Shown one piece after another: positions 3,001-35,268 of a stretch of 64,000 bases of DNA. Position 1 is the first letter of the stretch; each line of letters begins with the position of its first letter. The stretch covers positions 2,170,001-2,234,000 of the forward strand of contig CM030336.1 in the NCBI GenBank assembly GCA_017654855.1. Direction: 5' to 3'. This DNA is from Podospora anserina (lineage: Eukaryota). The notes below the pieces were generated by a model, which was not told the DNA's origin, ran no database searches, and was given only the letters and a program-made list of their open reading frames with translations. Both the position numbers and the translations under genes were made by a program.

Positions 3001-3917
3001 ATTACGGTCTATTATAATAATATATATATAATTAAAGTAATTTATTACGGACCATAATATTAAATTCGTATCGAAGTGTTAAAAAGTATTAATAACAAAG
3101 TTACGGATAATGAGTAAAGCGTTTACGGCTTATTACCTTAAAATAAATATCTAAATAAAGCGGTTTCATTAAATTATAAAATAGTATTTCCAGAATTATA
3201 TTAATTTCGAACAAAACAATTAAATGAAAATATTATTTATACTATGATTAATATATAATATCTGTTTTTATAAACTTAAAATATAAAGTAGACTTACGGT
3301 AAGGACTTAATATTAAAGTACTTAAGGTTAGAATTAAAGTAAATAGATTGTATATATTTTACTGTAAGTTTAAGCAAAAACTGGAGTTTATAAAGGAAAG
3401 GATACAGAAATATTATAATATTAAAAGCCTCGAGAGATTTTGCTTATAATGGGGAATATAGTATTCTTTTCTATATGAAAACTACATATTAAAAACCTAT
3501 TAAAAAGCTAGATTATAGGAGAGTAGGCCCATTTGAAATTAAAAGGAAGATATCGGAAATAATTTTCCAATTAAAGTTACTTAGTACGATACGTTTATAA
3601 TTATATACTTTTTCTATTTTACTTTTAAAATGCGTATTACCGGTAAGTAAAGTTAATATATAGGAATGATAAGAAACGGGAAGGAAAAATAAATTATAAA
3701 AAGGATATTAAATTTATAATTGAATAAAAAATAATTAAAATATTTAATTGGTTAATTAAAATACCCGGCTATAAATAATTCGTAGGAACTAACGGTAAAC
3801 CTTAATTACTTAGGTAAACCGAAGGATTCTACCGGTAATACCTCAACCGATTAAAACTAATATGAGTAAAAAAAATATATTAGGATTTTCAAGAAATTAA
3901 AAATCTTAATACGTTAA

Positions 3918-3988
3918 AACCTTTAAAGGGAATCGAACCCGCGCCTCCTACGTAGAAGTCGGCGTATAATGTACTATATAACGAGGTT
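3918..3988 (-). ncRNA. tRNA-like unit embedded antisense in E1
   Basis: Minus strand reads aacctcg-tt-atat-agtacatt-atac-g-ccgac-ttctac-gtagg-aggc-gcggg-ttcgatt-ccctt-taaaggtt-tt. Intact B-box GGTTCGATTCCC; homologous to 16224-16293 and 24329-24398. Confidence 0.75.
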
Positions 3989-4030
3989 AATAGGACCGAA
4001 GGAATTTGGGTATAACTAACATTACGCGGC

Positions 4031-4660
4031 TCAATTACCCTAAGAAATTAGAGGCGTACTATTAACGGTACCTTAGGTAATTAGAAAAGAAGGGCAGGCT
4101 ATATTAGGATTTAAGGAAAAGTCGGAAGGCTAATTAAGACCTAAAGAAAAATCTAGAAAGGAAAAGTTAAATGGGACGGTCACTGAGGACTCTGCTACGG
4201 GACGGTCCCGAAGAGAGATAAAAGAAATAAATTACTCTTTACGATTAACTTTTTTTAACTCTTTTATATTATTAAAACTACGAGAAATAGTATGAAATAT
4301 TTTATTAAGCTAAAGACTTTTTCACTTTTGTAAATGAGCGACTTTAATTATACAAGTAGATAATTTAGCCTTCACCCTTTTTATATTAAAATTAAAACGG
4401 TTATAATAAATAACGATTTTACAAAGGTTAAAGCTAGAGGGATCGCCGGCCTTATAAAAAGACTAATTTGAAAAATATAAAAAGAGTAGCGAATAAAATT
4501 ATTAAAGAAAAGTTCGTAAGGAAATAAACGGCGTTCATAATAGGTATAATAGGTAAATATAGTAGAAAAGTTCCGTAAAATAATATCGAATAAAATGTTA
4601 CGATAAATAGTTTTAGGATAAGTAATTTTCGAGTGTTTAAAACTCCAGTAAAAAAATATA
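4031..4660 (-). pseudogene. RIP-mutated antisense accessory ORF of E1 (Zn2Cys6-like Cys cluster plus coiled coil)
   Basis: Minus strand Y-T-Y-Y-E-R-R-L-F-P-Y-x9-Y-S-F-Y with TAT/TAC at Cys positions (C-x2-C-x6-C-x9-C-x2-C after de-RIP). C-terminus GTVNSTPLIS*GN-stop matches E2/E3. 5' end approximate; at least one frameshift. Confidence 0.65.
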
Positions 4661-4753
4661 TAGTAAAGGATAAAAGAGGAGTTAAAAATTTACCGTATTA
4701 ATAATAAAAAGGAAATTAAGCTATAGGGATTTCGGCTTACAAAAGGAGTATTA

Positions 4754-4867: not shown

Positions 4868-5238
4868 TGTGACGAACCCCTGTACAGAACCTCTGAAAGG
4901 GATACGGGTTGAAGGTAACTTCTGACAATTGGTTCGGTGCAGCTAAACAGTGCACAATAAGATGTCTCAATATAAACACAAGATACAGTGAATACAATTG
5001 TGAATTGCATACTGCGGAACTGTCTATCTACACCAGCCAGTTCCTCCGTATATATAGACCTGTTTATCACCATTATCACCAGTGATAATGTCGATTATCA
5101 CTCGTCGTTCACCGAAGGCTGGTGATAATCGTGATTATCACCCTTGGCGCTAGTGATAATCTCACTTCCCCACTTTTCCGTTCCTAGTGGTTGGACGGGT
5201 CGCGCCCCGCGCTCCCCACTTATGTCAGGTCCGTGACA
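4868..5238 (-). mobile_element. Chromovirus-family LTR, GATA-repeat U3 type
   Basis: TGTGAC...GTGACA termini, shared R/U5 module and TATATATA box. U3 matches 19124-19262. Flanks atcca/acaaa are not a TSD. Confidence 0.92.
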
Positions 5239-8200
5239 ACAAATTACTGTTCATCTCTGTATTATTACCTTGAATCCTTAAAGAAAAAATTCTTTAATTA
5301 TAAAATAGATTTTATAAACTCAAATTGTTTTGAGATTTTACCTTTATCATATCATAATATATAAAGTAATTACTTATAAATAAAAAGTCTTTTTCTTTTA
5401 TTACTTAGGTTAATGTACGTATTTATTCGTTATTTTCGTTATGTTTCTTTATGTATTTATTATACTTACTAATGGGTCTTTAAACAGTTAACTACTAGGT
5501 ATTTTTCTTAATCGTTATTAACAAATATAAAGTAAATTTATTATAATGATTGTATTAATTAATCAATATACAGTTGGTGATTATGATCAAACTTTCCGGC
5601 TAAACTTTATAAAAATAATTGATAAATTATTTAGGAAAGCTCTATACTAACCTTTATGTTTTATCGCTTTTTTTATACAACAATTATTATTTTCTATATA
5701 TTAACTATTACATTTTATTAGGTGCCCGTTAGCTTACTATCATTTATAAATATGTCTATTCCTCAGGTAAGATCATTGTTTATTCAATATATTAAAGTAT
5801 CTTTGTTTTTATTTTTGGCAATATTTATAAAGATATATAATTATTTGGTTTTTTTTATGTTATTACTACTTTTGTAATTATATCGGTTCATTTCTTATTA
5901 CATATAATATTTATTTTTTACTATGTATAATATTTAGTAACAATGTATTTTTTTAAAACCCTATATTAATACAGTTTAGATTGTATTAAATATTATAGTA
6001 CTTGGAACCTACTTCTGCTTATATATTACTTTATTTATAGTCTATACTTATACTATAATTTTATTTACTAACCTTTCAAACTACTCTTTTATTATTTCAA
6101 TGGTTTTTTAAAGGTTTAACTTAATATTATGATACATTTATAAGTTTCGGTATTATAAAAAATATATTTAATTACTTATTTATTCACTTATAGTTGAACT
6201 AATGATAAGCTAGTAACGATATATAATTCTCTATTTGTAAGGGTAAACAGCTCTTTTAGATTGGTAGATTCTCCCGTATCAGTTTCTTTATATAAATTAT
6301 AAAGTCGAGTTTACTTTTCTTAAATATATTCTTGTGACGAACCCCTATCCAGAACTTTTCAAAGGGATACTGGTTGAAGGCACTTCTGAATAATCCTGGT
6401 TCGGTACAGCTAAACATTGTACAACAAATGGCTTTTCACAATCACAATAGCTAAGATACCACGATTGTGACTTGTATTGCATACTGCGGAACTGTCTATT
6501 TACACCAGCCAGTTCCTCCGTATACATAGACCAGTGGACCGTGGACCGTTGACTTACAGACGGTCCTCGGTCCACTCCTGATTGACCGATACTGGACCGT
6601 GGACCGTGAGCTCCGCCGCGGTCCCCGGTCTCCATCTTATTGGTCCGTTTGCCCACCTGGACCGTGAGCTCCGCTCGATCGCGCGGTCCAGTCCTGATTG
6701 GTCCCTTGTGGCCCCACTGTCTTCCAGAACCGTGACATAAAGATATCATTATAATTTTAAGGATAAAAAGGGTATAAGAATTTTTGGAAGTTTATTAGGG
6801 GGAAAAAATTTATAGGGAAAATTCAAAATTGTTGTAGTACTGGCCAGACTTGACTTTATCTTATCACTTGCTCTGCACCTAACCTGACTCACTTGCTTGG
6901 CTGGTCTGTGCTTACCTACTATACGCTTGTACGTTTAAAGCCCTACTTAGCTGGCTATAAAGCTTTCCGTTTTTTCCCTTCTTTAACTAGAATCCTATCA
7001 AAATAAGTGGTCATATTATATCTTTATATCCTCAAAACCTTACTTATAAGATTATTCTAGCTTAACCGTTATGGTTTTTAAAAACTGTTTCATTTTCTTA
7101 ATTAACAAACCGAACCGAACTAAATTAAAATTCGGGTACTCATTAATGTTATCAAATATAATTATCCAAAAAGTCGCTATTATAAACGGAAAAGTTACTA
7201 TACTAATGAAAGTATATATTTAGAGAATAATTTGGTAATAATTCACATGACGAACACCGAACCCAACTAAATTAACTATTTGTATGTATATACTTTTATG
7301 ATGAGGTTAAGGCTCTTAATTCATATATTTATTAATATATCCAATTTATTTCAGAAATCTTCTTAAGAACCTCTTTATAAATAATAAAATTATTATTAAA
7401 CTCTATTATTACTTAGAATTTATGTGGATATACAGATTATTAGATAAAGAATTATTTTTTATATTATACGCCGAAATAAAAACGAAGATATTTCTTATAT
7501 CATATTAGCTAAGGTTAATAACGTGATATTAATTATATATATCAAGCTAAATGTTATTGAGATAATTTGGAGCCAGTACTTTACCCTTTTATGAGAGAAA
7601 CTAAATAAACATGTTAATAGTAAAATTACTGTATTCATTAAGTTTTTATTATTAATAGTAAAGTTATTAATCTTTTAACATTAAACATAAAATATTAAAT
7701 TTAAAGATCTTCTGAATAACAAGATATTCAATTAATTCATTATGGAAGATTTAAAGGTTATATTTATTAAAATTTCGATTTCCATCTATACCCAGAAATC
7801 CAATATTTATAGCTTTCACAAGTATAGAAATCAAGTAAAGATATCATTATTATCTTTAAATATTCAATAGTTTAAATTATTCTATTAATTTAATAGCCTA
7901 GATTATTTTATTAAGTTAATATCTAAAGGATCCTAAAACTCTTTATTACCCCGTTAACTCCGAAAGTATTTTTTCTTCACTTTAAATAACAAAAATAATA
8001 TCCCCACGAAAACTCTTTGTTTAAATAGAAATAAATAAAGGCTACTTATAACAAATTAGTACCTGTCAAAACAGTGAATTAAATTAATTATACTGTTGAA
8101 TTAAGTTCAGTTATCAGTATTGAATCCATTTACTATAATACGCTTATTTTCTTTTCAAATATTTAATATAACTTTTTCCTTATTACGAAGAGCTTCAAAA

Positions 8201-14596: not shown

Positions 14597-15033
14597 TATG
14601 ACGAACCCCTATATAGAACCTCTGAAAGGGATACGGGTTAAAGGTAACTTCTAATAATTAGTTCGGTATAGCTAATAGTGCATAATAAAATATTTTAATG
14701 TAAATATAAGATACCGTAAATATAATTGTGAATTGTATATTACGGAACTGTCTATTTATATTAGCTAGTTCCTTTATATATATAGACTTCTTTTCCTAAC
14801 CGTAATTCCTTTAATTAGTGTTCCGAGTATATTAATTACTTACGCTTAGCCTAATTAATATCTTAATTATATTAATTACCCCGGCCTAGCCTACTTAATC
14901 TAATTAGTATTCTAATCGCACTAATTACCGTCCCTCCCTATAATTAGCTTTCTTAAGTATTTTCCTAATTAGCCTTTACTCCTTTAGTTCTATAATTAAT
15001 CGTTATTCTCGTCTATATACTAAGGTTATAATA
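14597..15033 (-). repeat. 3' LTR of E3 (CTGATCAGTG-type U3)
   Basis: Aligns end to end with 23433-23870, differing almost only by C->T/G->A. Confidence 0.93.
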
Positions 15034-15143
15034 CGATACTCCCTCTCTTAAACTAACGTCCCGGTAGCCCCATTCCTTTTATTTTTTTTAATAATAACTT
15101 CCTTCCTTAATAAATTTTCCCTTCCCATTACTATCTTTTCGTA

Positions 15144-16181
15144 ATATTTAACCGCGTTAAGAAACCTACGCCGAAAGGCCCTTTGTTACGAATATAATGT
15201 GGATACCCGCAAAGAATAACTAATAGGAAAGAGGAGGCACGGCAGCCAATTAAGAGAAGGGAGGATGGACTAGTAAGAGGTGGATCATCCGGGACATGAA
15301 GAAATCATAAGCGATTCCCGGAAATCACTTATGATCCTTAAGAATCGGTCATGATCCGGGGAGAAACAGAATGATTTAGGCTTAGCATTAGGTCTATATA
15401 TACGGAGGAACTAGATAGCTTGTAGATGGTTCCGCAGTATACAATTTACAGTTGTATTTACGGCATTTTGTGTTTATATCGAGATATCTTATTGTGCACT
15501 GTTTAGCTGCACCGAACTAATTGTCAGAAGTACCTTCAATTAGTATCCCTTTTAGAGGTTCTGTACAGGGGTTTGTCACACCCTTCTAATACCCTTCGCC
15601 GCTAAAATCTTATTACCGCTACTTTTATTTTTAATAACGAAATCCTTCCCTATTCGTCCTGGGAAGCTCTTAATATTTTTGGTTATCGCGCTCTCGAGCG
15701 CTTTTCTAGATATAACTACTACATTAATTCTAGTCGTTCCGACTGCGACGTCCTAGGTCTTACTCCTGCTTTAATAGTCTCTCTTCGTCGCTAGAAAGAG
15801 AAACTAGACGCCGAAGAGCAAAAGGCCTATACGACTATACTATAAATTACCTCGAAGCTTTCGCGGGTAGAGACCTAGCGTCGTACTTTAGTCGCTAAGT
15901 TCCGTTATATCGCGGCCCGCGAGGAGCGGTTAATCGAGGACTTAGAACGGGAGGAAGTATAAATTGCTTTTATTATTAATCTTCCTTTAACCTTTTCTCT
16001 TAATTAGGCCTCTATAATATTAAACTAGCTCGGCTTAGACCTTCCGGATAACCTATTCTTTAACCTTCCGCTTAGTTCTAACTTTTTTATAAAGTTAATT
16101 GTTAATCCTTTCCGGAGTTCCCCGCTTCCGGCTACCCCGGACTTTTCCGGCGGTAATCCTCCTATTTTCTAGGGTAATTAA
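15144..16181 (+). pseudogene. Antisense accessory ORF of E3 (Zn2Cys6-like cluster plus coiled coil, ~210 aa), interrupted by the solo LTR 15184-15580
   Basis: After removing the solo LTR and one TSD, a single frame runs from ATA (RIP of ATG): xFNRVKKPTPKGPSNTLRR*NL...EILPYSSWEALNIFGYRALERFSRYNYYINSSRSDCDVLG...LRR*KEKLDAEEQKAY...AAREERLIEDLEREEV...PDFSGGNPPIF*GN-stop. All internal stops are TAA/TAG, consistent with RIP of CAA/CAG. Confidence 0.8.
15184..15580 (+). mobile_element. Solo LTR of the chromovirus family, TCATGATCCGG-type U3
   Basis: TGTTAC...GTCACA termini, perfect TSD ccctt/ccctt, shared R/U5 module. Confidence 0.93.
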
Positions 16182-16223
16182 CGCTTATAGTATTACTTAC
16201 GCCCGGATTTCTTTATATTTATT

Positions 16224-16293
16224 AACTTTATAGTATAGTACGTAGTATATTAATTATTACGTCGAAGGCGTAAATTCGATTTTTATCGAGGTT
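16224..16293 (+). ncRNA. tRNA-like unit embedded antisense in E3 (heavily RIP-mutated)
   Basis: 70 nt, ungapped alignment with 24329-24398, runs into a T7 tract. Confidence 0.65.
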
Positions 16294-16990
16294 TTTTTAT
16301 ATTTAAGTTATAAATACTTTTTTATAATTTAAATATAGTTCTTTTTACTTACTTAAGTTTAAATCGGTTTAAGTATTATCGGTAAAAATTTTTTAACTTA
16401 TTTAAATAATTAAAATATATTTATAATTCTTATAAGTTATTTATAACCGGGTATTTTAATTAATTAATTAAATATTTTATTTAACCTTTATTAAACCGTA
16501 AATTTAATAATTTTTTTATATTATACTTTTCTTCTTCGTTCTCCATTACTTCCTATATATTTACCTTACTTACCGGTAGTACGGGTTCCAAAAGTAAAAT
16601 ATAAAAAGTATATAACTTTAAACGTATCGTATTAGGTAATTCTAATTCGAATATCGTTTTTAAAATCTTTTTTTTTAATTTAAATAGGCTTACTTTCCTA
16701 TAGTCTAGCTTCTTACTAAGTCTTTTAATATGTAAATTACGTATAAAAAGGAATACTATATCCCTCCCCTTAAAGTAAAGTCCCTCGAGCCTTTTAATAT
16801 TATAATATTTCTATATTTTTTTCCTTATAAACTTTAGTTTTTATTTAAGCTTATTGTAGAATATATATATTTTATTTACTTTAACCCCGGCCTTAAGTAC
16901 CTTTACGTTTAATCCTTACCGTAGGTTTACTTTATATTTAAAGTTTACGAAGAACGGCGTAACTTTAGTCGTTTCTATTAGTAATATATT

Positions 16991-17624
16991 TGTTAATGTG
17001 TGGGTACTACTAAGTGCCCTACTTACTGCCCTACAGATTGATATTACAGTGGGCAGTACTGCTATAAGCAGTAATGGAACTTCCCGGCTTGGATCCCTTT
17101 AGAATATTCTTTACAAGGGACCCTTGAAGGCTTACAGGGCTACTGTGGCCTGAGGCTTAGTCAATGGATACTAGAACCTTCCAAAGTGGCTACAGGCTTA
17201 CGTAGTAAGTTGCCACAATGGTGTAATTTATAGGGCACCTTTGCTACTGAAGGTTCTATAGATTTCCATAAGTCTACACTAGACCCACCTAAGCCCACTA
17301 AATACCCAAAGTGGTATAGGGGCTTCCAGGGCCTACAGGACCCACAGTAGGCCTACGAAGGCCTATATATAGACCTCTCCTCTCTCCTGTAAAATAGTTC
17401 CTTTCTTTTTTTCCTTAAGGGCAAAAGCTTAAGGCTAAGGCCAAAGGCCAAGGCCAAGGGTAATAAAGGCAATTCTTATTCTTTATACCTCACTGTATTA
17501 CAGTGCTTTACCTTCCTTCGGCACTGCCGTCGTATCCTCCCGCTTCCGCTTGCGCACTGCTGTATTTTACAGCAACCCTGTATAGGTTCTATATTATAGG
17601 CCTATCAGGGCTTACCAGCTAACA
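16991..17624 (+). mobile_element. Solo LTR of an unrelated family (634 bp)
   Basis: TGTTA...TAACA termini, perfect TSD atatt/atatt, TATATATA at ~17364, AATAAA at ~17462. Interrupts the E3 integrase region. Confidence 0.88.
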
Positions 17625-19123
17625 ATATTATATACTAATTATACCGTAAATAATAATTTAATTTAATTATCTTACTCGAAATTAATATAAATCTATAAGT
17701 ACTATTCTATAATTTAATTAAGCTGTTCCGTTTAATCGTTTATTTAAAGGTAGTAGGCCGAAAATACTTTACTTATTACCCTTAACCTCGTTATTAACGC
17801 TCTTTAAAACTTCGAAATAAATTTAATATCGCGGTCCGTAATAAACTCTTTCGGCTATATATATATTAATATAATATACCGTAGTACTATATCCGTTAAT
17901 TACTTTACCGATTAAATCTCTTTATAAAATAAAAAATATATTTACTTTATAAGCCTATCGACTACCGTTAATATACTATCGTACTTAACGCCGGTTACCG
18001 TATTTCTTAACTTTAGTAATTTAGTAATAAAGTTTATCGTAATTAAACTCTATAGTCGTTCTACTACTAGTAGTAGCTTTAGAAATCCGTAAGGCTTATA
18101 CTTCGTAACCCTTATTTTTTCGTACGTATAGTATAACTAGATAGCTTTTTTAATATTATCCTTAATCCTTAATTAATTAAAGTATTACTTAATCTTTTCT
18201 ATAGTCTTTACGATACCTATATATCCTCTGAACTTCGATCCGTAAATTTTTATTATTAGTATCGCCTTATTACTTAGCTTTACGTATACTCGATTCTTAT
18301 ACTATAATTTTCCTTAACTATCTTTTTAAATACTTTATAGCTTTAATTCTTCCTATTACTATTATTCCGTAATATTATTACTTAACTTCCTTTAATATTT
18401 ATTAGAAATAACTTACTTACGATACATTATATAACACTTTATTTACGGCTAAAATAGATATTTAAGAGTACCGTTTAGCGTTTCCTTAAGTAATAGTAGT
18501 AACTTTTTAGGTATATCCTTATAGTAGTCGGTTCGCCGGCTAAATACGTTTACCCTAACGTTCTCCGATCCCTTTTTATAATTAATTTAAAAATTAAATT
18601 CCGAAAAAAACTTTAATTATTACGTTTACTATACGTTAAGGACTTTCGTAATAGTAAAGTATCGTAAATTCTTATAATCCGTATAGACCTATATTTTATA
18701 ATTAATATTATTAAAGTATAGCCTCTATTCCTCGAACGCTTCGATAATAGCAAGTAGCTCTTTATTATAAATTAAATAGTTTTAACGTACCCCTTTTAGC
18801 TTTTTCGAAAAGAAAACTATTAAATATAACTTTCTATCGTCGTCTCGCTATCCTAATTGTCTACCGATCGTATAGTTTAATATATCTACCTCGACCTCGA
18901 ATAGTCGATTAGGGTTTAGTAATTTAAGTACTGGGTCCTTTAAAATAACTTTTTTTAGCTCCTAAAAGGCTTATTCCTTTTCCTACCCTTACCGGAACTC
19001 CACGTCTTTTTTAGTTAAATAATTAAATAGTTACGCGATTCTTACGTATTTATAAATAAATATCCGATAGAAATTTATAAACCTTAAAAATTCCCTAACG
19101 TATATCTATAATTACGGCGTAGG

Positions 19124-19454
19124 TGTCACGGACCTAATATAAGTGGGGAGCGCGGGGCGCGACCAGTCCAACCACTAGGAACGGAAAAGTGGGGAAGTCA
19201 GATTATTACTAGCGCCAAAAGTGATAATCGATATTATCATTAGTAATAATGGTAATAAATAGGTCTATATATACGAAGGAACTAGCTAGTGTAGATAGAT
19301 AGTTCCGCAGTATGCAATTTATAATTATATTTACGGTATTTTGTGTTTATATTGAGACATTTCGTTGTGCACTATTTAGCTGCACCGAACCAATTGTCAG
19401 AAGTTACCTTTAACCCGTATCCCTTTTAGAGGTTCTGTACAGAGATTCGTCACA
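19124..19454 (+). mobile_element. Solo LTR of the chromovirus family, GATA-repeat U3 type (40 bp shorter than 4868-5238)
   Basis: TGTCAC...GTCACA termini, perfect TSD gtagg/gtagg. Confidence 0.94.
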
Positions 19455-22445
19455 GTAGGCCAGTCCTTAACTACCCCAATTTTCCTAGGTTTTATACGAA
19501 CCTTACCTAGTAATATTAAATATCCTAGATATACTATCTTTTATACGTGGAACTCGCTCTTTTCTTTATTAATTAAAAGTCCGGCTCCGTATAGCGCGTC
19601 GAGTATCTTTTATACATATCGCTTATATTTTCTCTAAAGTACGTAAGTAGATAAGAACGTTATTAAAATAATATATTATTGTTTTATCGAGGTATTTCCG
19701 GATCGTGTAGTTAACGAGAGATTGGAACGTCGCGGGCGTATTAATTAGCCTAAATAGTATTACAAGATACTTAAAATAACTATAGAATATATAAAACACT
19801 ATTTTCTATTTATCTCTTTCCTTAATCTGTATATAGGCGTACCCGATAAGTATATTTAAACGTATAAAGTATCGCGCCCTAATTAATTAACTTCGTAACC
19901 TAAATATTAACGGTAGCGGGTAATTATTTTTTATCGTTTCGTTATTTAGTTAGCGGTAGTCTATATATAGTTGTAAGCTACCGTCCTTTTTCGGTACGAA
20001 AAATACGGGGTATCCTACTAGCGATATAAACTCCTAATATATCCTCTCTTTAAATTCTTATCTAAATACTTCCGTAGCTCTTTACTTTACTTATCGTTAA
20101 TATAGTAAACCTTAAATAGCTATAGCTTAGCTCCTTCTTTTAACTTAATTTCATAGTTCTACGGTTCTTACTCTGGAAATCCCTTTAAATATTTAGCTAT
20201 AAAGGCTAAGTATCTTCGATATTTTACTAATACCGTTTTTTTCTTACTTTTCTCTACGTTATTATAATAAATATACTTATTAACCTCCGATATCTCCATT
20301 AACGTCGTTAACCTTATTTCTTCGATTTTACCGCCTATATTAATAAAATATATTATTACTTCTTAGGCTCTTTACGGTAGTACCGTAGAGGGTACTTATC
20401 CTACACTCTACTCTATACGTGCGCCTAATCTCCTATCGTTAGCTAAATACTTTTAAAGTTCCTTTAATTATAAATAACTATTATTTTTTTAATTAATATT
20501 TAGCTTATAGTTTTTATACTATAATTACCCTAGGATTATATTTTTCGAGGGTCCTATATCTATAATATTAAATATAATTAAAATTATTTTTCCTTCGACT
20601 ATAATATTTAAAAGTAATATTTTTTTATAAACCTTTTACGTCGGAAATAGTTTTTATATAACGATTTATTCCTTCTTTTTTTTCTATAGTATTTTAATCT
20701 AATATATAAACTATAACGAAATTAAATTCGTTTCTATACCTTCGTTTATTAATATTACTATTTAAATATTTTTTTAATACGTTATAACTTAAAAGTATTT
20801 ATCTTTTTTACCTTTTCTTTATATAGTAACGACTTTATTAATAAGTATTAGGTCGTTATCCTATACCTTTACTTTACGCCGATACTTCCGGAAAATACCG
20901 TTCGTAGTTTATTAAAGGTTACCGGCCCCCGCGAAGGGCCGCGAGTTATTTCTTAAGCGGTTATATTATTTAAAAGCGTCTTTCTACTCCGGATTATTTA
21001 GTAATATAAAGTCCTTTAACTATACTCGTTTAGTTTCCTTCTATTTTCCGTCTCTAACGTTCCTAGTATTTTATTGAGTATACTTTTAATAATACTTCCG
21101 TTACTTAGTTAATACCTTAAGCTCGGCGGCCTAATAGTATCGCCTAACTTTTTATTATAAATATAGCGCGTAGTCTAGGCTTAAGTACTACTATAGTACT
21201 ACCTTTTCTCCCGAGATTTTACTATTTAACGTATAGCTTTCGTCGATATACCCGAGGTAGTACCTTACCTCTTTTAGCGTAAACTAAATTACTTAAAATC
21301 TATTTTCTAATTAAATTACTTTCCTTGCTTTCTATAATAAATAATCGTTTAATTCTTTATTAATTTTATTTTATTTTATTATCGTTTTTTTAATTAGCTA
21401 TAACTTACTTTCCTTACTTACCTTACGTACCGGCTAGTAACCGTATAGCGACTTACTTTAATAATACTCTACATATCCGTATATAATACACTAGAACTAA
21501 AGTGCTTTCCGATACTCCGGATATTTAGGATAAAACTATACTATATTTCCTTTATAGGGTATATACCTTATAAATATAAATGTATCTCTTAATAACTTTA
21601 CGATCCTAATATTAACGATTTTTTTATTTTTCTAATATTTTTCCTAACTTTTATATATAAGTTTCTTAAACTATATTTATATAACGGCGATCCTATATTT
21701 ACCGTATTACTTCTTTAGTATTATTTACCGGATAAGTCCTTCCTATTACGTAACATTATTCTTTTTAGTAACCTCCGTAACGATTTCCGTAATAACTTAT
21801 ACTATTTACTTTTATAATACCTATATCTAAAAATCTCCTTCCTCGTGCTCTACCTTTAGCCTTTCCATTACTTTCTACAGCTCCTGGAACTCTATTTCTT
21901 ACGTAGCGTATTAGTTAGAGTCTTCCTCGAAGCTTACCGCTTCGATTTATTAGTACCCGATAACTACGACCTTTATAACTCTCGGTCCTTTTAATATAAT
22001 AATTATTATAATATCCTTTTTCTATCCGAGTTACTTAAGTGCCCTATAGTCCTTCTTAAAGTATCCTGTTTTACCGCAGTTAAAACATTTACGGTTATCT
22101 TTACCCTTATCCCGGCCCTACAACCTTTACTACTAAATAGCGTCGACTTCTATAGGCCTTACGTAGGTAGTCCCTAAAACGTAAGTTCCGTAAAGCCGTC
22201 TCTTTTTCTTATCGTTAGGGCAGTACGGCCCTTACACACGTATACCCTTACGCTCTCTACGGCGCTAGTATTATCGATCGTTAATACGGACTACCATTAT
22301 AATGTACTCGTCGATAGTCTCCGGTCGCTCCATTCGATATAGCTCGTCCTTAACTTTTTCCTTAAACCCGTTATAGAACAACTGCATTAACCTTTCGTCG
22401 TTAATCGCGCTGCGGAGCGCGTCCGTCCTAAACGCTATAGTGTAG

Positions 22446-22846
22446 TGTCACGGTTCTGGAAGACAGTGGGGCCACGAGGGACCAATCAGGACTGGACCGA
22501 GCGATCGAGCGGGGCTCACGGTCCGAGTGGACGGAACGGACCAATAAGATGGGGACCGGGGACCGCGGCGGGGCTCACGGTCCACGGTCCAGTATCGGCC
22601 AATCAGGAGTGGACCGAGGACCGTCTGTAAGTTAACGGTCCACGGCCCTAAGGTCTATATATACGGAGGAACTGGCTGGTGTAGATAGATAGTTCCGCAG
22701 TATGCAATGACAAGTCACAATCGTGGTATCTTAACTATTGTGATTGAGATATCTTGTTATGCACTATTTAGCTGCACCGAACTAATTGTCAGAAGTTACC
22801 TTCAACTAGTATCCCTTTCAGAGGTTCTATATAGGGGTTCGTCACA
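22446..22846 (+). mobile_element. Solo LTR of the chromovirus family, GGACCG-repeat U3 type
   Basis: TGTCAC...GTCACA termini, TSD tgtag/tatag (one RIP change), inserted in E3 gag. Confidence 0.94.
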
Positions 22847-23432
22847 TATAGTCGGCAGTAAATCGAGTCTATTTAAGGTTAGCTAGTCGCTCCTGGGCAC
22901 CCTTACCCTCGTTATATTCTCCAAATACCTCCTTAATCTTCTTCTTAAAGCCCTTATACGACTTAAAACACGTCTAGGTAACCTCCTCCCTCTCGTTATA
23001 TATATTATCGAAGTAGTCTCTTAAGATCGGCTCGAACTACGTAAATACTATATCCTTAAGCCTGGACGTAATATACACGACTTTAGATTCCTCGTCCGGG
23101 AAACGAGAAGGGTAATACCGAAAGTAAGCTTTAAGTTAGATTAAGAATCCTCCTAGCTTTCCTTTTATACCTCCGTAGCGGTCGGGTACCTTAAGTTTGG
23201 TACGTTTTTCCTCCTTACGTAAGGTACTAATCTCTTAGTGGAGTATAGCGTTTTTTTACGTAAAGGTATCGTAGGAAAGGCGTGATTTATCCTTAAGCTT
23301 TTAGATACGAGCGAGAAGCTAATCGATAGTAAGTTGGGTAAACGCCCTTACCTAAGTATTAACGTTTCCGGCTATAACGTTAATTTAATACCTTTAATTT
23401 ATCCGTAATAGAGTTAAAGTAAATATATAACG

Positions 23433-23870
23433 TATAACGAACCCCTATATAGAACTTTTAAAAGGGATACGGGTTAAAAGTAATTTTTAATAATTAGTTC
23501 GGTATAGTTAAATAGTATATAATAAGATATTTTAATGTAAATATAAAATACCGTAAATATAATTGTGAATTGTATACTACGGAACTATCTATCTATATTA
23601 GCTAGTTCCTCCGTATATATAGATTTCTTTTTTTAGCCGTGATTCCTCTGATTAGTGTCCCGAGTATACTAATTACTTACGCTTAGCCTAATTAGTGTCC
23701 TGATTACACTGATTACCCCGGCCTAGCCTGCTTAGTCTGATCAGTGCTCTGATCGCACTGATGACCGTCCTTTCCTATGATTGGCTCTCCTAGGTGTTTT
23801 CCCGATTAGCCCCTGCTCCCTTAGTTCTATAACTAATCGTTATTCTCGTCTATATACTAAGGTTGTGACA
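23433..23870 (-). repeat. 5' LTR of E3
   Basis: Pairs with 14597-15033; followed on the minus strand by the PBS and gag. Confidence 0.93.
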
Positions 23871-24051
23871 TCAGTGCCTCATAAGCCTATGTTACAGTGA
23901 TTATCTTTTATATATTACAGGGCGCCGCCTCTGCAATCCACCTTCCCTCAGTGCTCTGGCAACTGTCAAATGCTGCAGTCAAAGTCTTCTTCGCTCTCAG
24001 TGTACTGCGCCGATAGCTATTCGAGCCTATATTCTACAGGCCTTAATAGCA

Positions 24052-24288
24052 CCTAAAGGAGTTATAAAAAACTAAGCGCGAAAAGTAATATATTCGTTCC
24101 GCTTTTTTTCGGGACTATTTTGTAGTGGAGCCCTCCGTTACTATCCCTTCCGGTTTTCTTTTCTAGATTTTTCTTTAGGCTTTAACTAGCTTTCCAACCT
24201 TTCCTTATTTTTTAATATAGTTAGTACTTCCTTCTTAACCGGTTAGGGTACCGCCGGTAATACGCCTTTAATTTCTTACGGTAATTAA
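24052..24288 (+). pseudogene. C-terminal remnant of the antisense accessory ORF of E2
   Basis: Ends ggt acc gcc ggt aat acg cct tta att tct tac ggt aat taa (GTAGNTPLISYGN-stop), homologous to the E1/E3 C-termini. Aligns with the reverse complement of 4031-4270. Confidence 0.7.
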
Positions 24289-24328
24289 AGTATAATATTA
24301 ACTATATACTAGTCCCTAGGTATTTATT

Positions 24329-24398
24329 AACTTTATAATATAGTATATAGCACGCTGGTTATTATATCGGAGGCGCAGGTTCGATTCCCGTCGAGGTT
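24329..24398 (+). ncRNA. tRNA-like unit embedded antisense in E2 (best-preserved 3' half)
   Basis: aacttta-ta-atat-agtatata-gcac-g-ctggt-tattat-atcgg-aggc-gcagg-ttcgatt-cccgt-cgaggtt-tt. Forms a cloverleaf after de-RIP; B-box GGTTCGATTCCC. Confidence 0.75.
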
Positions 24399-27300
24399 TT
24401 ATATTTAATTTAGCAAATATAGTTTATAAATTTAAATATTTTAATTTTTTACTTTAATCGGTTTAAGGATTACCGGTAGAATTTTTAAATTTATTTGGGT
24501 AATAGACATTTACTATTAATTTCTCTAAGTAATCTATAGCTGGGTAATTTAAATAACGAATTAAATATTCCAATCATCTACTTTTAAAGTATAAATCTAA
24601 TATTTCTTCTATATTATACTTTTCCCTTTCGTTTTCCGCTTTTTTTCAAATATTAGCCCTACTTACAGGTGATACGGGTTTCAAACGTAAGATATAAAAA
24701 GTATATAAATATAAATATAACATATTAAATACTTTTAATTTAAATAACGTCTCTAATATTTTTCCTTTCATTTTAAACGGATTTATATTTCTATAGTCTA
24801 GCATCTTACTAAGTCTTTTAATACGTAAATTACGTATAGAAAAGAATGTTATATCCCTTTTTTTAAAGCGAGGTTCTTCGAGTTTTTTAATATTATAGTA
24901 TTTTTATATCCTTCCCCTTATAAAATCTTTTAAAAAATTTATTGTAAAGTATATATAATTTACTTACTTTAACCCTAGCCCTAAGTACCTTCATATTGGG
25001 TCCTTCCCGTAGATTTACCTTATATCCGAAATCTAAAAAGAACGACATAATACTTATTGTTTTCATTGATAATATATTGTATATTAATTGTATTATAAAT
25101 AATCAATTTAATTATTTTACCTGATATTAAGATAGTTCTGTAAGTACTATTCTACAATTTAGTGTTGTCACCAATTAAGGCTCTTTATCAGGTAAGAAGT
25201 ACGTTTATTTAATAAATTAAGTCTATTATAATTAAGCTTCATAGTAATTTTATTATTAATACGAACTCTAAAAACCTATAAAACTTGTATTTATAACTTT
25301 TATTCTTTTGTATATATAGTGTAATTGAATAGCTTCCTTAATATCGCTCTTAATCTTTAATTCTTTAAAGTAGTATTTAAATTTTCTATAGTCTTTGTAA
25401 TATTCATATACGCTCCGAACTTCGATGCGTAAATTTTTATTATTAATACGGTTTTCTTATTTAGCTTTACGCATATTCAACTTCTATACTATATTCTTTC
25501 TTAACAGTTTTTTTAAATACTTTACGGCTTTAATTTCTCTTATTAGTATTACTTTGTAATATCGTTATTTAATTTCCTTGAGAATATATATTAAAAATAC
25601 TTTGTTTACGATATATTACGTAATACCTTATTTAAAATTAAAGTAAGTACGAAGAAGTACTTTCTAACGTCTTTTTAAATAATAATAATAACTCTCTAAA
25701 TATATCATTATATTAATCGGCTCCCTGGCTAAATAGTTTTACTTTAGCGTTTTTTGAACTATGTCTATAATTAAGTTAAAATTATATTTTAAAAAAAGCT
25801 TTAATTAATGCAACTACTATACGTTAAGGACCTTCATAGAAATAAAATATCGTAAATCCTTATAATTCGTATAGACCTGTATTTCGTAATTAATATTATT
25901 AAAGTATCGCTTTTATTCTTTGAACGTTTCGATGATAACGGGTAATCTTTTATTAGATTAAGTAATTCTAACGTATTTCTTTTATCTTTTTTAAAAACAA
26001 TTTACCGGATCCTTTAAAATAACCTTTTAGCACCTAAAAACCTCCAGTTTTCCTCTTGCTCCTACCAAAACCCTACGTTTTTCTTAATTAAAGAATTAAA
26101 CAGTTACGCGATTTTTATATACTTCCGGATAAATATCTGATAGAAATTTATAAATTTGAGGAATTCTTTAAAATATATTTATAACCACGGTTTAAATTAA
26201 TTCTTAACTATCGTATTCTTCCTAGGTTGTCTCCGAATCTTAACGATATTAAATATCCTAGATATATTATTTTTATAGTCAAAACTCGTTTTTTTCTTCA
26301 TCAATTAAAAGTCCAGCTTTATATAGTAGGTTTAATTTTTCATATATATATTATTTATGTTCTTTGAAAATATATAAGTAAATAAAAATATCTTCAACAT
26401 AATATATTACTATTTTATCGAGGTACTTCCGGATTATATCATTAACAACAAATTAAAACGTTACGGGCGTGTTAATTAATCCGAATAATATTACGAAATA
26501 TTTAAAATAATTTTAGGGTATATAAATCATTATTTTTCTATTTATTTTATCTTTAATTAATATATGAGTGTACTTGATAGGTATTTAAGCATATAGACTA
26601 TTACGCTTTACTTAGTTAATTCCGTAATTTAGATATTGACGGTAGCGGATAATTATCTTCTACCGTTTTATTATTCAATTAATAATACTTAATAGATATA
26701 ATTATAAATTACAATTTTTTGCTCGGTACGAAAAATACGAGGTACTTTGCTAGCGATATGAACTCTTTGATATATCCTCCCTTTAAATTTTTGTCTAAGT
26801 ATTTCCGTAACTCCTTATTTTATTTATTATTAATGTATAGACCTTAAATAACTATGGATTAGTTCCTTTTTTTTTCTTTAATTTTATAGTCTCACGGTCC
26901 TCGCTTTAAAAATTCATTTAAATACTTAACTGTAAAGGCTAAATATCCTCGATGTTCTACCGGTACTACCTTTGTCTTAGCTTTCTTTAGGTTATTATAA
27001 TAAACGTAATTATTAATCTCCGATATTTCTACTAACGTTATTAGCCTTATTTTTCGATTTTACCGTTTATATCGATAAAGTATAATATTGCATTCTAATC
27101 TCCTTACGGTAGTACCGTAAAAAGTACTATTCTTATACTCTACTTTATATATATTTTTAGCTTTCTATCGTTAATTAAATATTTTTAAGGTTTTCTAATC
27201 GGAAGTAATTACTATTGCTTTAATCGATATTGAGATTATAATCTTTATGTTATAGTTAATTTAGAAATATAGGTTTGGAGTGTGCTATCTTTATCATATT

Positions 27301-34685: not shown

Positions 34686-35127
34686 TGTGACGAACCCCTG
34701 TACAGAACCTCTGAAAGGGATACGGGTTGAAGGTAACTTCTGACAATTGGTTCGGTGCAGCTAGACAGTGCACAACAAGATGTCTCAATGTAAACACAAG
34801 ATACCGTGAATACAACTGTGGATTGCATACTGCGGAACTGTCTATCTACACCAGCCAGTTCCTCCGTATATATAGATCCTGGGGCCCTGAGGTGCTCGCC
34901 CTGCTACGGCCCCGATTACCCATAACACATTGCATCCTGCAAAGTGCTCGTCGTGCTATGCCTCTGATCACTCGTAGCATCTTGCATCCTGCAGAGTGCT
35001 CGTGTGTCTTGGCGCCATAGCGCTTTCGTCCAGCCCTGATTGGCTGTCTCCTGACTTCTCTAATGATTGGCTAGGGACGTCCTGCGCCCCACATGTGGCG
35101 CGGCCTGCTGTTGGGTTAACTGTGACA
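34686..35127 (-). mobile_element. Solo LTR of the chromovirus family, least mutated copy, at the AT/GC boundary
   Basis: TGTGAC...GTGACA termini, perfect TSD tatac/tatac, shared R/U5 module. U3 has a TTGCATCCTGCA(A/G)AGTGCTCGT direct repeat and two GATTGG boxes. Confidence 0.95.
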
Positions 35128-35268
35128 TATACCTATTTTTAGTTAAGGGCTAATTTTAAACATCACTACATTACTATTGAAGCAATATAAAAAATTCATG
35201 ATTGTCTACCATTGCTAGGTTTCTAGTTTATGAGTTGGGAGGTACCTAATACTGTAGCAGACTTGAAG

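Follow-up and report, generated by a model that had tools for sequence, protein, structure and literature searches.

In a 64,000-nucleotide stretch of the Podospora anserina genome (contig CM030336.1, positions 2,170,001 to 2,234,000; hereafter the window), we analyzed positions 15034-16300, which lie at the 3' end of a long terminal repeat (LTR) retrotransposon copy named E3. Taking the explanation as a whole, we consider it probable that this segment is the 3' accessory region, between the 3' LTR and the pol stop codon, of a crapaud-type chromovirus inactivated by repeat-induced point mutation (RIP), and that the region combines a gene for an antisense accessory regulator with an inserted tRNA-like unit. 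The antisense frame is a genuine gene, widespread in this clade and under purifying selection. Structural models give its product a Zn2Cys6-type fold and a dimerising helix. The evidence supports a tRNA-derived origin of the unit which, together with the hairpin behind it, forms a module that is a real, recurrent and lineage-restricted addition.

The antisense accessory gene of E3

The plus strand of E3 holds a 211-codon gene antisense to gag-pol (15144-15183 joined to 15586-16181). The parts of this gene, and its remnants in two further copies in the window (E1 and E2), are as follows.

15034-15143, plus strand: 110-nt stretch between the LTR and the start of the accessory gene, which would hold a 5' untranslated region and/or a promoter
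15144-15183, plus strand: codons 1-13 and the first base of codon 14; the start, ATA, is a RIP-mutated ATG, and residues 3-13 of the homologue P0077 match 15150-15182 at 91%
15184-15580, plus strand: nested solo LTR inside the gene, in the orientation opposite to E3, with its conserved 190-nt half at 15390-15580
15586-16181, plus strand: codons 14-211 and the stop (TAA, 16179-16181), with remnants of the Zn2Cys6-type domain, of the coiled coil and of the tail
4031-4750, minus strand: remnant of the gene in E1, heavily RIP-mutated, traced by purine/pyrimidine alignment to E3; it ends ..STPLIS(stop)GN-stop
24054-24288, plus strand: 3' remnant of the gene in E2, about 78 codons; homology stops at 24054 and the frame ends ..NTPLISYGN-stop

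The nested solo LTR is flanked by a 5-bp target duplication, CCCTT (15179-15183 and 15581-15585), beyond which the reading of the gene resumes in frame. The tail of the E3 gene reads ..GGNPPIF(Q)GN, where Q is TAG in E3 (PPIF(TAG)GN-TAA). There are eight internal stops, and five of the six cysteine codons are changed, mostly to tyrosine as expected of RIP. A Pfam search with eight translated frames of the raw cassette returned no families. E1 keeps the whole region of the gene, visible only in the purine/pyrimidine alignment (score 166.5, versus 120.8 +/- 9.6 for shuffled sequences).

An earlier note on this DNA, made from the sequence alone, had described the order 3' LTR, about 110 bp (in E3), open reading frame (ORF), spacer, tRNA-like unit and T-run in all three copies. 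All of these parts were located where it had placed them or close by, and 15034 is the first base inside the boundary of the 3' LTR (14597-15033), which pairs with a 5' LTR. The ORF is real in E3, but E2 retains only its last 78 or so codons and E1 only the trace described above; the layout within E3 is likewise as described, except that the nested solo LTR after codon 13 had been missed. The shared order and spacing are present, but among the window copies they are mostly inherited from one family, because the pol ends of these copies are 90-93% alike with transitions ignored. The meaningful conservation is that among distant relatives.

Distribution and selection of the accessory gene

For protein searches, the E3 query was translated with TAA and TAG as Q and TGA as W. 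An exhaustive phmmer search of 1.84 billion representative proteins gave eight matches (2.2e-39, 2.2e-21, 7.1e-11 and five weaker), and a profile search collected 17 family members. The named homologues, from Podospora pseudopauciseta, Triangularia verruculosa, T. setosa and Chaetomidium leptoderma, are all hypothetical proteins. The Triangularia protein P0077 (211 residues) matched 15582-16178 with its residues 13-211 (58% over 199 residues, E = 7e-62).

A pol-based search of metagenome contigs yielded 18 loci, of which 11 extend at least 700 nt beyond the pol end and were testable. The accessory family was detected by tblastn on the opposite strand directly behind pol in nine of these 11; the other two (L003 and L006) are mutated elements with short antisense frames that are family-like by eye only. 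The gene is uninterrupted, with 172-216 codons, in L001, L004, L005, L008, L011 and L013 and is split into two frames in L007, L009 and L012. The L004 counterpart of the 110-nt stretch between LTR and gene measures about 134 nt.

When L001 and L004 were compared, 81 differences were counted at 111 synonymous sites and 61 at 357 non-synonymous sites (dN/dS 0.07). Three further, more distant pairs gave dN/dS values of 0.18-0.28 with saturated dS. Thus, open antisense frames in unmutated relatives, the gene in nine of 11 loci and dN/dS of 0.07-0.28 bore out the earlier proposal that the frame is a gene. At 2318-2785 of L004, tyrosine occupies two of the six cysteine positions, and a near-identical protein from another contig (P0084) keeps both cysteines; L004 is therefore a slightly decayed copy.

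Predicted fold and dimerisation of the accessory protein

The predicted protein of about 211 residues begins with a basic N-terminal tail, which is followed by a Zn2Cys6-type cluster, a single long helix and a disordered tail. In an alignment of 20 members, M33, C36, C39, C47, C56 and C59 were invariant and C67 was present in at least 90%. The spacing of the six cysteines (x2, x6-7, x7-9, x2, x6-7) fits the PF00172 pattern C-x2-C-x6-C-x5-12-C-x2-C-x6-8-C. The domain opens with an invariant Met-x2-Cys, and the cluster is followed by Cys-Asp-Val-x-Gly and then by a heptad-rich stretch. Pfam Zn_clus was matched by six of nine isolated N-terminal domains (E<=10, best 3.1e-5), and the domain is best called a divergent Zn2Cys6-type domain, whole proteins scoring below the PF00172 cut-off.

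An AlphaFold2 model built on the alignment had a mean pLDDT of 78.6, with values of about 98 in a helix at residues 74-138 (65 residues) and a disordered tail; the N-terminal domain modelled alone reached 66.5. When the N-terminal model was compared with 48,161 chains (by the structural aligner only), six chains had a Z score of at least 2, and all six were Zn2Cys6 domains (HAP1 2.9, Leu3 2.7, 1cld 2.6, GAL4 2.6, Pho7 2.3 and PPR1 2.2; rmsd 1.7-4.2, 33-46 residues aligned). Foldseek likewise returned only HAP1 for the N-terminal model (four of four rows, TM 0.47-0.60), and six of its eight weak rows for the whole model were DNA-binding fragments of HAP1 or GAL4. A fold search with the whole model found coiled coils and long helices only, and a PDB sequence search with the whole family gave coiled-coil noise only; the profile of the N-terminal domain gave weak PDB rows for Cep3, RSC30 and AlcR (E 0.9-7.8). 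The ESM Atlas contained Ascomycota clusters (scores 0.92-0.93, 62-122 members) with weak TM values.

Two copies of residues 28-145 were predicted to pair (ipSAE 0.57, versus 0.20 for the best of three controls). This mark was reached by 21 of 30 proteins whose solved structures are pairs of one chain and by none of 23 with single-chain structures, and among eukaryotes by 17 of 29 and none of 30, respectively. The dimer runs shared at least 93% of contacts with a partner pLDDT of at least 81, and the pass of a coiled coil in such a prediction may stem from likeness to solved structures. The description of the ORF product in the earlier note, a zinc cluster with a coiled coil, agrees with the six conserved cysteines, the Zn_clus matches of six of nine N-terminal domains, the six of six structural matches and the 65-residue helix.

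The tRNA-like unit, hairpin and T-run

Downstream of the accessory gene, the following features were located on the same strand as the gene.

16224-16293, plus strand: tRNA-like unit of E3 (70 nt), RIP-mutated, 42 nt after the accessory stop and followed by T7
16297-16338, plus strand: hairpin of E3 with an 18-bp stem, followed by T5 (16342-16346); -13.7 kcal/mol, z -6.5, 0 of 200 shuffled sequences folding as well
3918-3988, minus strand: tRNA-like unit of E1, followed by a hairpin (3877-3912, minus strand) and T8
24329-24399, plus strand: tRNA-like unit of E2, the least RIP-mutated, covering positions 1-71 of 71 of the Rfam tRNA model

The spacer from the accessory stop to the unit, 42 nt in E3, is 40-42 nt in E1 and E2. 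The three units align column by column, with a 7-bp acceptor stem and a T-arm, and E1 and E2 have a perfect B-box, GGTTCGATTCC. ARAGORN called no genes in the raw window, nor in any of the three raw units, and an Rfam scan of 1-35500 returned no tRNA. The raw E1 unit had no Rfam tRNA match, and the raw E2 unit matched over its full length with 16 bits (E 0.53), below the gathering score of 29. The unit goes undetected in the raw sequence because RIP hides it, and it becomes visible when a small stretch is scanned or a de-RIPed consensus is built. The de-RIPed consensus of the three units was called by ARAGORN as a 71-nt tRNA-like gene with a 4-base anticodon; the redrawn loop has 6 nt. With respect to RF00005, the window copies score below 29 bits, and a 7-nt anticodon loop with a readable anticodon is absent from both the consensus and L004.

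Among the 18 loci, tRNA-like units were found in one, L004, which carries two; this corresponds to one of the 11 testable relatives. The L004 unit at 2236-2307 scored 51.2 bits (E 4.6e-8) as an Rfam tRNA that lacks one loop position (6-nt anticodon loop), and ARAGORN assigned it a 2-base anticodon. In the other unit (about 1975-2090), the boxes are canonical and the anticodon arm carries a long insert. Both lie inside the accessory gene, between its body and the conserved C-terminal motif, a site that differs from that in the crapaud lineage. The protein P0084, from an independent European Nucleotide Archive contig, ends with the translated L004 unit, and the arrangement is therefore not an artefact of a single contig. 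The tRNA-like character proposed earlier was supported by the ARAGORN call on the de-RIPed consensus, the Rfam match of E2 and the 51.2 bits of L004. The proposal that gene and unit occur together held for the gene (nine of 11 testable relatives) but not for the unit (one of 11).

A pattern scan of metagenomes for the de-RIPed T-arm and acceptor gave no matches. In a DNA run from the same organism, up to six contigs (at least 80% likeness) covered the unit, versus two to four over the gene, and they showed many T>C and A>G differences from the window unit, fitting less RIP-mutated copies. In one contig from this organism, the T-run at 16290 is connected to another T-arm (..GGTTCGACTCCTAT..), which is similar to the second L004 unit; a further tRNA-like variant may be present in some family copies.

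A hairpin and a T-run, which the earlier note did not mention, accompany the unit in L004 and in two of the three window copies. Compared with shuffled sequences, the hairpins had z values of -6.5 (E3), -2.96 (E1; 2 of 200 shuffles folding as well), -5.9 (L004 unit 2) and -3.9 (L004 unit 1). The L004 hairpins comprise 21 bp followed by T9 (z -5.9) and 20 bp followed by T5 and T10 (z -3.9). The E3 hairpin had -8.7 kcal/mol on the opposite strand, and in three of four cases (E3 and both L004 hairpins) stability was 4-5 kcal/mol greater on the tRNA-like strand than on the pol strand; each L004 hairpin contains three G.U pairs. For the three window copies, a consensus hairpin with nine compensated pairs was predicted. 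The four L004 hairpin arms, with up to four substitutions allowed, had no other match in the 18 loci. In terms of a short interspersed nuclear element (SINE), the head and a short hairpin body are present, and the flanking repeat is the duplicated gene overlap described below, not a short target site duplication.

Overlap of pol and the accessory gene

In four loci, pol and the accessory gene run into each other at their 3' ends; the shared stretch measures 116 nt in L005, 182 nt in L008 and L011, and 137 nt in L013. Read antisense, the conserved chromodomain end (..CPEKLQEFHQRNPD) gives the conserved last motif of the accessory protein (..GSSGGTPEASRGS). In the overlap loci, the same bases thus encode the C-terminal helix of the chromodomain and the accessory C-terminal motif on opposite strands. 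In the window family, pol and the accessory gene do not overlap, and a second, decayed chromodomain end sits under the accessory C-terminus.

16135-16185, minus strand: relic chromodomain end of E3, NYPRK.EDYRRK, antisense under the C-terminus of the accessory gene
24221-24292: relic chromodomain end of E2, which reads YFNYRKKLKAYYRRYPNR and is clearer than that of E3
4024-4104: relic chromodomain end of E1, NYPKKLEAYY.RY, also clearer than that of E3

In purine/pyrimidine alignments with the real pol end, the relic scored better than 300 of 300 shuffled sequences in E1, 295 of 300 in E3 and 279 of 300 in E2. The duplicated chromodomain end indicates therefore that insertion of the tRNA-like module into the overlap was accompanied by a duplication, which kept both genes intact. 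The conserved accessory C-terminus seen in the earlier note is accounted for by this overlap and the duplicated chromodomain end.

The element and its setting

The E3 family is a Ty3/gypsy chromovirus, with reverse transcriptase, RNase H and integrase in this order and a C-terminal chromodomain. On the minus strand of 15581-22849, Pfam detected RT_RNaseH_2 (2.7e-19), RT_RNaseH (6.7e-16) and SH3_Tf2-1 (integrase, 2.1e-4) in order; the E3 chromodomain was read by eye after the integrase in the translation and has no Pfam score. The closest proteins are fungal gag-pol proteins with a chromodomain (56-57% identity, one from Chaetomium), which carry PF00078, PF17919, PF00665, PF24626 and PF00385. 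As in chromoviruses, we found direct LTRs with TG..CA ends, a polypurine tract before the 3' LTR and 5-bp target duplications.

14597-15033, minus strand: true 3' LTR of E3, 86.3% identical over 432 nt to 23433-23864 of the 5' LTR
15034-15049, minus strand: polypurine tract abutting the 3' LTR, which reads ..AAGAGAGGGAGTATCG and then the LTR start
16349-16540, minus strand: end of pol with the chromodomain and stop codon (16351-16349); the translation is ..EEEKYNIKKLLNLRFNKG..NFYR.YLNRFKLK stop, and the pol C-termini of relatives map here
23433-23873, minus strand: 5' LTR of E3; E2 adjoins the same LTR, and gag follows at 23204

The polypurine motif GAGAGG.G.ATCG followed by TGTCAC is common to L004, L001, L011, L013 and L009. 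On the sense strand, the E3 LTRs consist of a variable first half (U3), a TATA box and a conserved 190-nt second half (R/U5), in an orientation that agrees with the LTR of the un-RIPed relative L004. E3 spans 9277 nt, or about 7.3 kb after removal of four nested inserts (15184-15580, 16948-17620, 19124-19454 and 22446-22846). Homology to gag runs from 23204 to 22848 and resumes from 22444 to 22034; because it resumes on the far side, 22446-22846 is a nested solo LTR. We also considered 15034-15580 and 22446-22846 as the LTRs of E3, and this pairing was ruled out by the continuous gag homology, the inverted match to the L004 LTR and the target site duplication.

The published description of crapaud, an element of the Podospora anserina complex, gives a copy of about 7.3 kb with LTRs of 800 nt together and GAG plus RT-RN-IN-CD (PMC10787394). 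The same account describes an LTR of about 400 nt in which the U3 half before the TATA box varies between subfamilies and the 3' half is conserved (PMC10787394). Both the variable and conserved LTR halves of E3 and its length of about 7.3 kb agree with this. E3 thus fits crapaud by published description. Further, indirect evidence comes from the best named homologue of the accessory gene, which is from Podospora pseudopauciseta.

The first 35 kb of the window is AT-rich (GC 0.19-0.46), and the remainder has a GC content near 0.5. The AT-rich part consists of nested LTR-retrotransposon copies mutated by RIP, which differ from each other mainly by C/T and G/A. At about 35140, the nest switches abruptly to GC-normal, gene-like sequence, and the last solo LTR of the nest (34686-35137) is little mutated. 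Solo LTRs of the same family lie at 15184-15580, 19124-19454, 22446-22846, 6333-6737 and 34686-35137; the three nested in E3 sit one each in the accessory gene, pol and gag. They share the conserved 190-nt half, and their variable halves are unrelated, each with its own repeated short motif; such motifs are GGACCG/CGGTCC in 6333-6737 and GTGATAAT/ATTATCAC in 4868-5270. A 673-nt insert of higher GC content (16948-17620) interrupts the integrase of E3 relative to E1. E2 and E3 are arranged in tandem and share one LTR (23433-23873), and the interval between this LTR and the truncated cassette of E2 (23874-24053, 180 nt) is richer in GC and has no relation to E1 or E3.

Priming of reverse transcription

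We considered the unit as the element's own primer of reverse transcription, and this was ruled out: the sequence after the LTR (CGTTGCTAACTCC.. in L004) is not complementary to the 3' end of the unit. The sequence following the 5' LTR is CGTTGCTAACTCC-like in the relatives and in the window and lacks TGG. Nine bases of this post-LTR sequence pair with a stretch of the LTR that lies some 30 nt beyond the TATA box (L004, AGTTAGCAA; L011, AGTAAACAA), and this pairing covaries between L004 and L011, each stretch matching its own post-LTR sequence. The pairing regions are L004 3150-3345, L011 1700-1850, and 23380-23445 and 29700-29775 of the window. This pattern suggests Tf1-like self-priming in the chromovirus clade; Tf1-type self-priming has been described in general terms (PMC2864245). 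A degenerate search for the primer pattern was uninformative (53 matches, versus 40.5 expected).

A model of the accessory region and its alternatives

In live elements, the accessory protein would bind DNA as a dimer and tune the transcription of the element itself. Its gene would be expressed from a promoter in the 110-nt stretch next to the polypurine tract and/or in U3 of the 3' LTR, in the manner of the retroviral antisense gene HBZ. In most relatives, pol and the accessory gene meet in a tail-to-tail overlap. As the sequence shows, the crapaud lineage acquired a tRNA-derived unit between the two genes while the former overlap was duplicated, so that both remained whole. With its intact-looking RNA polymerase III (Pol III) boxes and non-canonical anticodon loop, the unit would be, or once have been, a Pol III unit giving a tRNA-like-hairpin RNA; it may also be no more than a tolerated passenger. 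We regard a function of the tRNA-like/hairpin module as possible, with the doubts outweighing.

Several observations weigh against this explanation. E1, E2 and E3 are all dead copies (pseudogenes). None of the sequencing runs listed as containing the stretch is recorded as RNA; three runs guessed to be RNA did not cover it and are uninformative on expression. With full-length proteins, no Pfam family reached its cut-off, the lone Zn_clus match having E 0.97 and 10 bits versus the required 21. Taken absolutely, the structural Z scores (2.2-2.9) are low; small values are expected for 45 residues, and it is the specificity of the matches that counts. The Foldseek E-values for these models are 4.6-10. 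The contacts of the predicted dimer (i+j near 198) are those of an antiparallel pair, and the coiled coils of Gal4 and Hap1 are parallel. As regards the module, the unit is absent from ten of the 11 testable relatives, and the L004 units look like a disruptive insertion in the accessory gene. The E2 hairpin folds no better than shuffled sequences, and the compensated hairpin pairs are weak evidence because RIP alters both arms of a palindrome alike. Finally, LTR subfamily and internal region are described as little associated in crapaud (PMC10787394), and this speaks against the idea that the protein is matched to its own U3.

It is entirely conceivable, and we take the prospect seriously, that the accessory gene is real and the tRNA-like/hairpin module is a neutral passenger, a SINE-like insertion or captured pre-tRNA that was fixed in one lineage in the only dispensable spot and inherited by all copies. 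The module is found in one of 11 testable metagenome relatives, the L004 units split the accessory gene, the anticodon loop is defective in both lineages, and the window copies are 90-93% alike apart from transitions, so that their agreement reflects descent. However, the combination of tRNA-like unit, long hairpin and T-run recurs in both L004 units and in the crapaud lineage with unrelated hairpin sequences, and the G.U pairs favour the tRNA-like strand. Further, the A and B boxes of the L004 unit are intact and its score is still 51 bits, and the insertion in crapaud came with the duplication that kept both genes whole. At the other extreme, an entire clade of ascomycete chromoviruses might have its own sequence-specific Zn2Cys6 promoter switch, made from an antisense message at the 3' LTR, with some lineages (crapaud and L004) adding a Pol III tRNA-like-hairpin RNA that is cut by tRNA-processing enzymes and Dicer into microRNA-like small RNAs, for self-limitation or against host silencing; we give this extended version little credence. 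Nor do we find it likely that, as the earlier note proposed, the unit ends or insulates the antisense mRNA; RNase P could bring this about by cutting at the 5' end of the unit, or TFIIIC bound to the unit could form a barrier between the convergent genes. RNase P does cleave at the 5' end of a tRNA-like structure in MALAT1 (mascRNA), and the unit lies 40-42 nt past the accessory stop on the same strand, with a perfect B-box in E1 and E2. Crapaud is also reported to be enriched in centromeric regions (2025 preprint), where barriers could matter. However, ten of the 11 relatives express, or would express, the gene without a unit, and cleavage at the L004 unit would leave a message without a stop codon. 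The spacer, moreover, holds no A-rich or triple-helix-like tract, and the genomic RNA must read through the unit.

With respect to the gene itself, a role other than transcriptional regulation of the element, for instance in targeting integration, handling nucleic acids or counteracting host silencing, is unlikely but deserves mention. It would accord with the predicted antiparallel dimer, which is unlike classical Zn2Cys6 activators, and with the lack of any activation-domain family match in the full-length protein (Pfam); the element already has a chromodomain for targeting. Yet the only structural relatives of the N-terminal domain are sequence-specific Zn2Cys6 DNA binders, and the order of cluster and coiled coil is that of Gal4 and Hap1 (six of eight weak Foldseek rows). 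That the antisense frame is not a gene, its conservation being a by-product of the constraint on the overlapping pol end or an artefact of gene calling, is close to refuted. The antisense relation between ..GSSGGTPEASRGS and ..CPEKLQEFHQRNPD would agree with such a by-product, but only the last 40-60 codons overlap pol. The cysteine cluster and helix lie outside the overlap and nevertheless have invariant residues and dN far below dS, and open frames of 172-216 codons persist in six loci. We retain as probable the reading of the segment as the accessory region of a crapaud-type element with an antisense regulator gene and an inserted tRNA-like unit.

Comparison with known systems

The Ty3/gypsy element Boty carries an antisense gene, brtn, between pol and the 3' LTR (PMC8365987, PMC7264820, PMC4227169, PMC5987419). 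As far as these sources describe it, brtn resembles the accessory gene in being an extra antisense gene in the same position in an ascomycete Ty3/gypsy element with a chromodomain, and it differs in that the descriptions mention neither a Zn-cluster fold nor a tRNA-like unit. Botrytis proteins were not among the 17 family members of the profile search, nor were they found with the N-terminal piece of L007. Together with the gene in nine of 11 testable relatives, brtn tells against the earlier statement that canonical fungal chromoviruses carry only gag-pol. Among plant LTR retrotransposons, Grande1, RIRE2, Retand and PvRetro13 are described as having additional ORFs in antisense orientation behind pol and before the 3' LTR; according to a 2020 review, their function is not known and they are conserved about as well as other element proteins (PMC7264820). 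They share position and orientation with the window gene but belong to different Ty3/gypsy lineages, and the descriptions used for the comparison do not mention a zinc-cluster domain. Here, one antisense additional ORF can be given a fold, a Zn2Cys6-type cluster with a dimerising helix. This gene is under purifying selection, has a host range within Sordariales and belongs to the transposon that is most abundant in a tractable model fungus. Its predicted DNA-binding product can be tested against each U3, which offers a handle on the diversification of the crapaud U3 into 14 subfamilies.

HBZ of human T-cell leukemia virus type 1 is a dimerising coiled-coil nuclear factor of the basic leucine zipper type, whose gene lies antisense at the 3' end under the control of the 3' LTR. 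The parallel is one of analogy: HBZ is a leucine zipper protein of a vertebrate retrovirus, whereas the window family has a fungal Zn2Cys6-type cluster and would be transcribed from the LTR. The accessory protein shares with the domains of Gal4, Hap1, Leu3 and Ppr1 (PDB 1d66, 3coq, 1hwt, 2hap, 2er8, 1pyi) the pattern C-x2-C-x6-7-C-x7-9-C-x2-C-x6-7-C, a small fold and a coiled coil directly after it. It differs from them in its Pfam score below the cut-off, the lack of a long regulatory domain, the predicted antiparallel pairing of its helix of about 65 residues, and its encoding by a mobile element.

The tRNA-like head with A and B boxes, the stem of about 20 bp and the T-run are shared with the TMERs of murine gammaherpesvirus 68, Pol III units with tRNA-like and pre-miRNA hairpin parts whose expression and processing have been demonstrated. 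TMERs belong to a herpesvirus and are expressed and processed, whereas the window unit is known from sequence only. Among LTR retrotransposons, Cassandra, Helenus and Ajax ('TRIMp3') are described as having Pol III promoters derived from 5S RNA or tRNA, for which a SINE insertion was suggested as the origin (PMC10886601, Kojima 2024). Like the window unit, these are small-RNA-gene-derived sequences with Pol III boxes inside an LTR retrotransposon. By that account, however, they lie in the LTRs of short non-autonomous elements, in the sense direction, and the fungal cases are from Basidiomycota. In contrast, the window unit is in the internal region of an autonomous ascomycete chromovirus, is antisense and is followed by a hairpin, and falls outside the definition of TRIMp3.

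The crapaud study draws the element with gag and pol only (PMC10787394), and the words 'antisense', 'tRNA' and 'zinc' occur nowhere in the main text of that study or of a 2025 preprint. Our literature search returned nothing relevant on an antisense Zn2Cys6 gene combined with a tRNA-like unit in LTR retrotransposons. Antisense extra genes are already known, in plants and, with brtn, in fungi, and the layout of an antisense gene with a tRNA-shaped unit is barely described. The module of tRNA-like unit, hairpin and T-run would be the first Pol III-type unit that we found described inside the body of an autonomous LTR retrotransposon.

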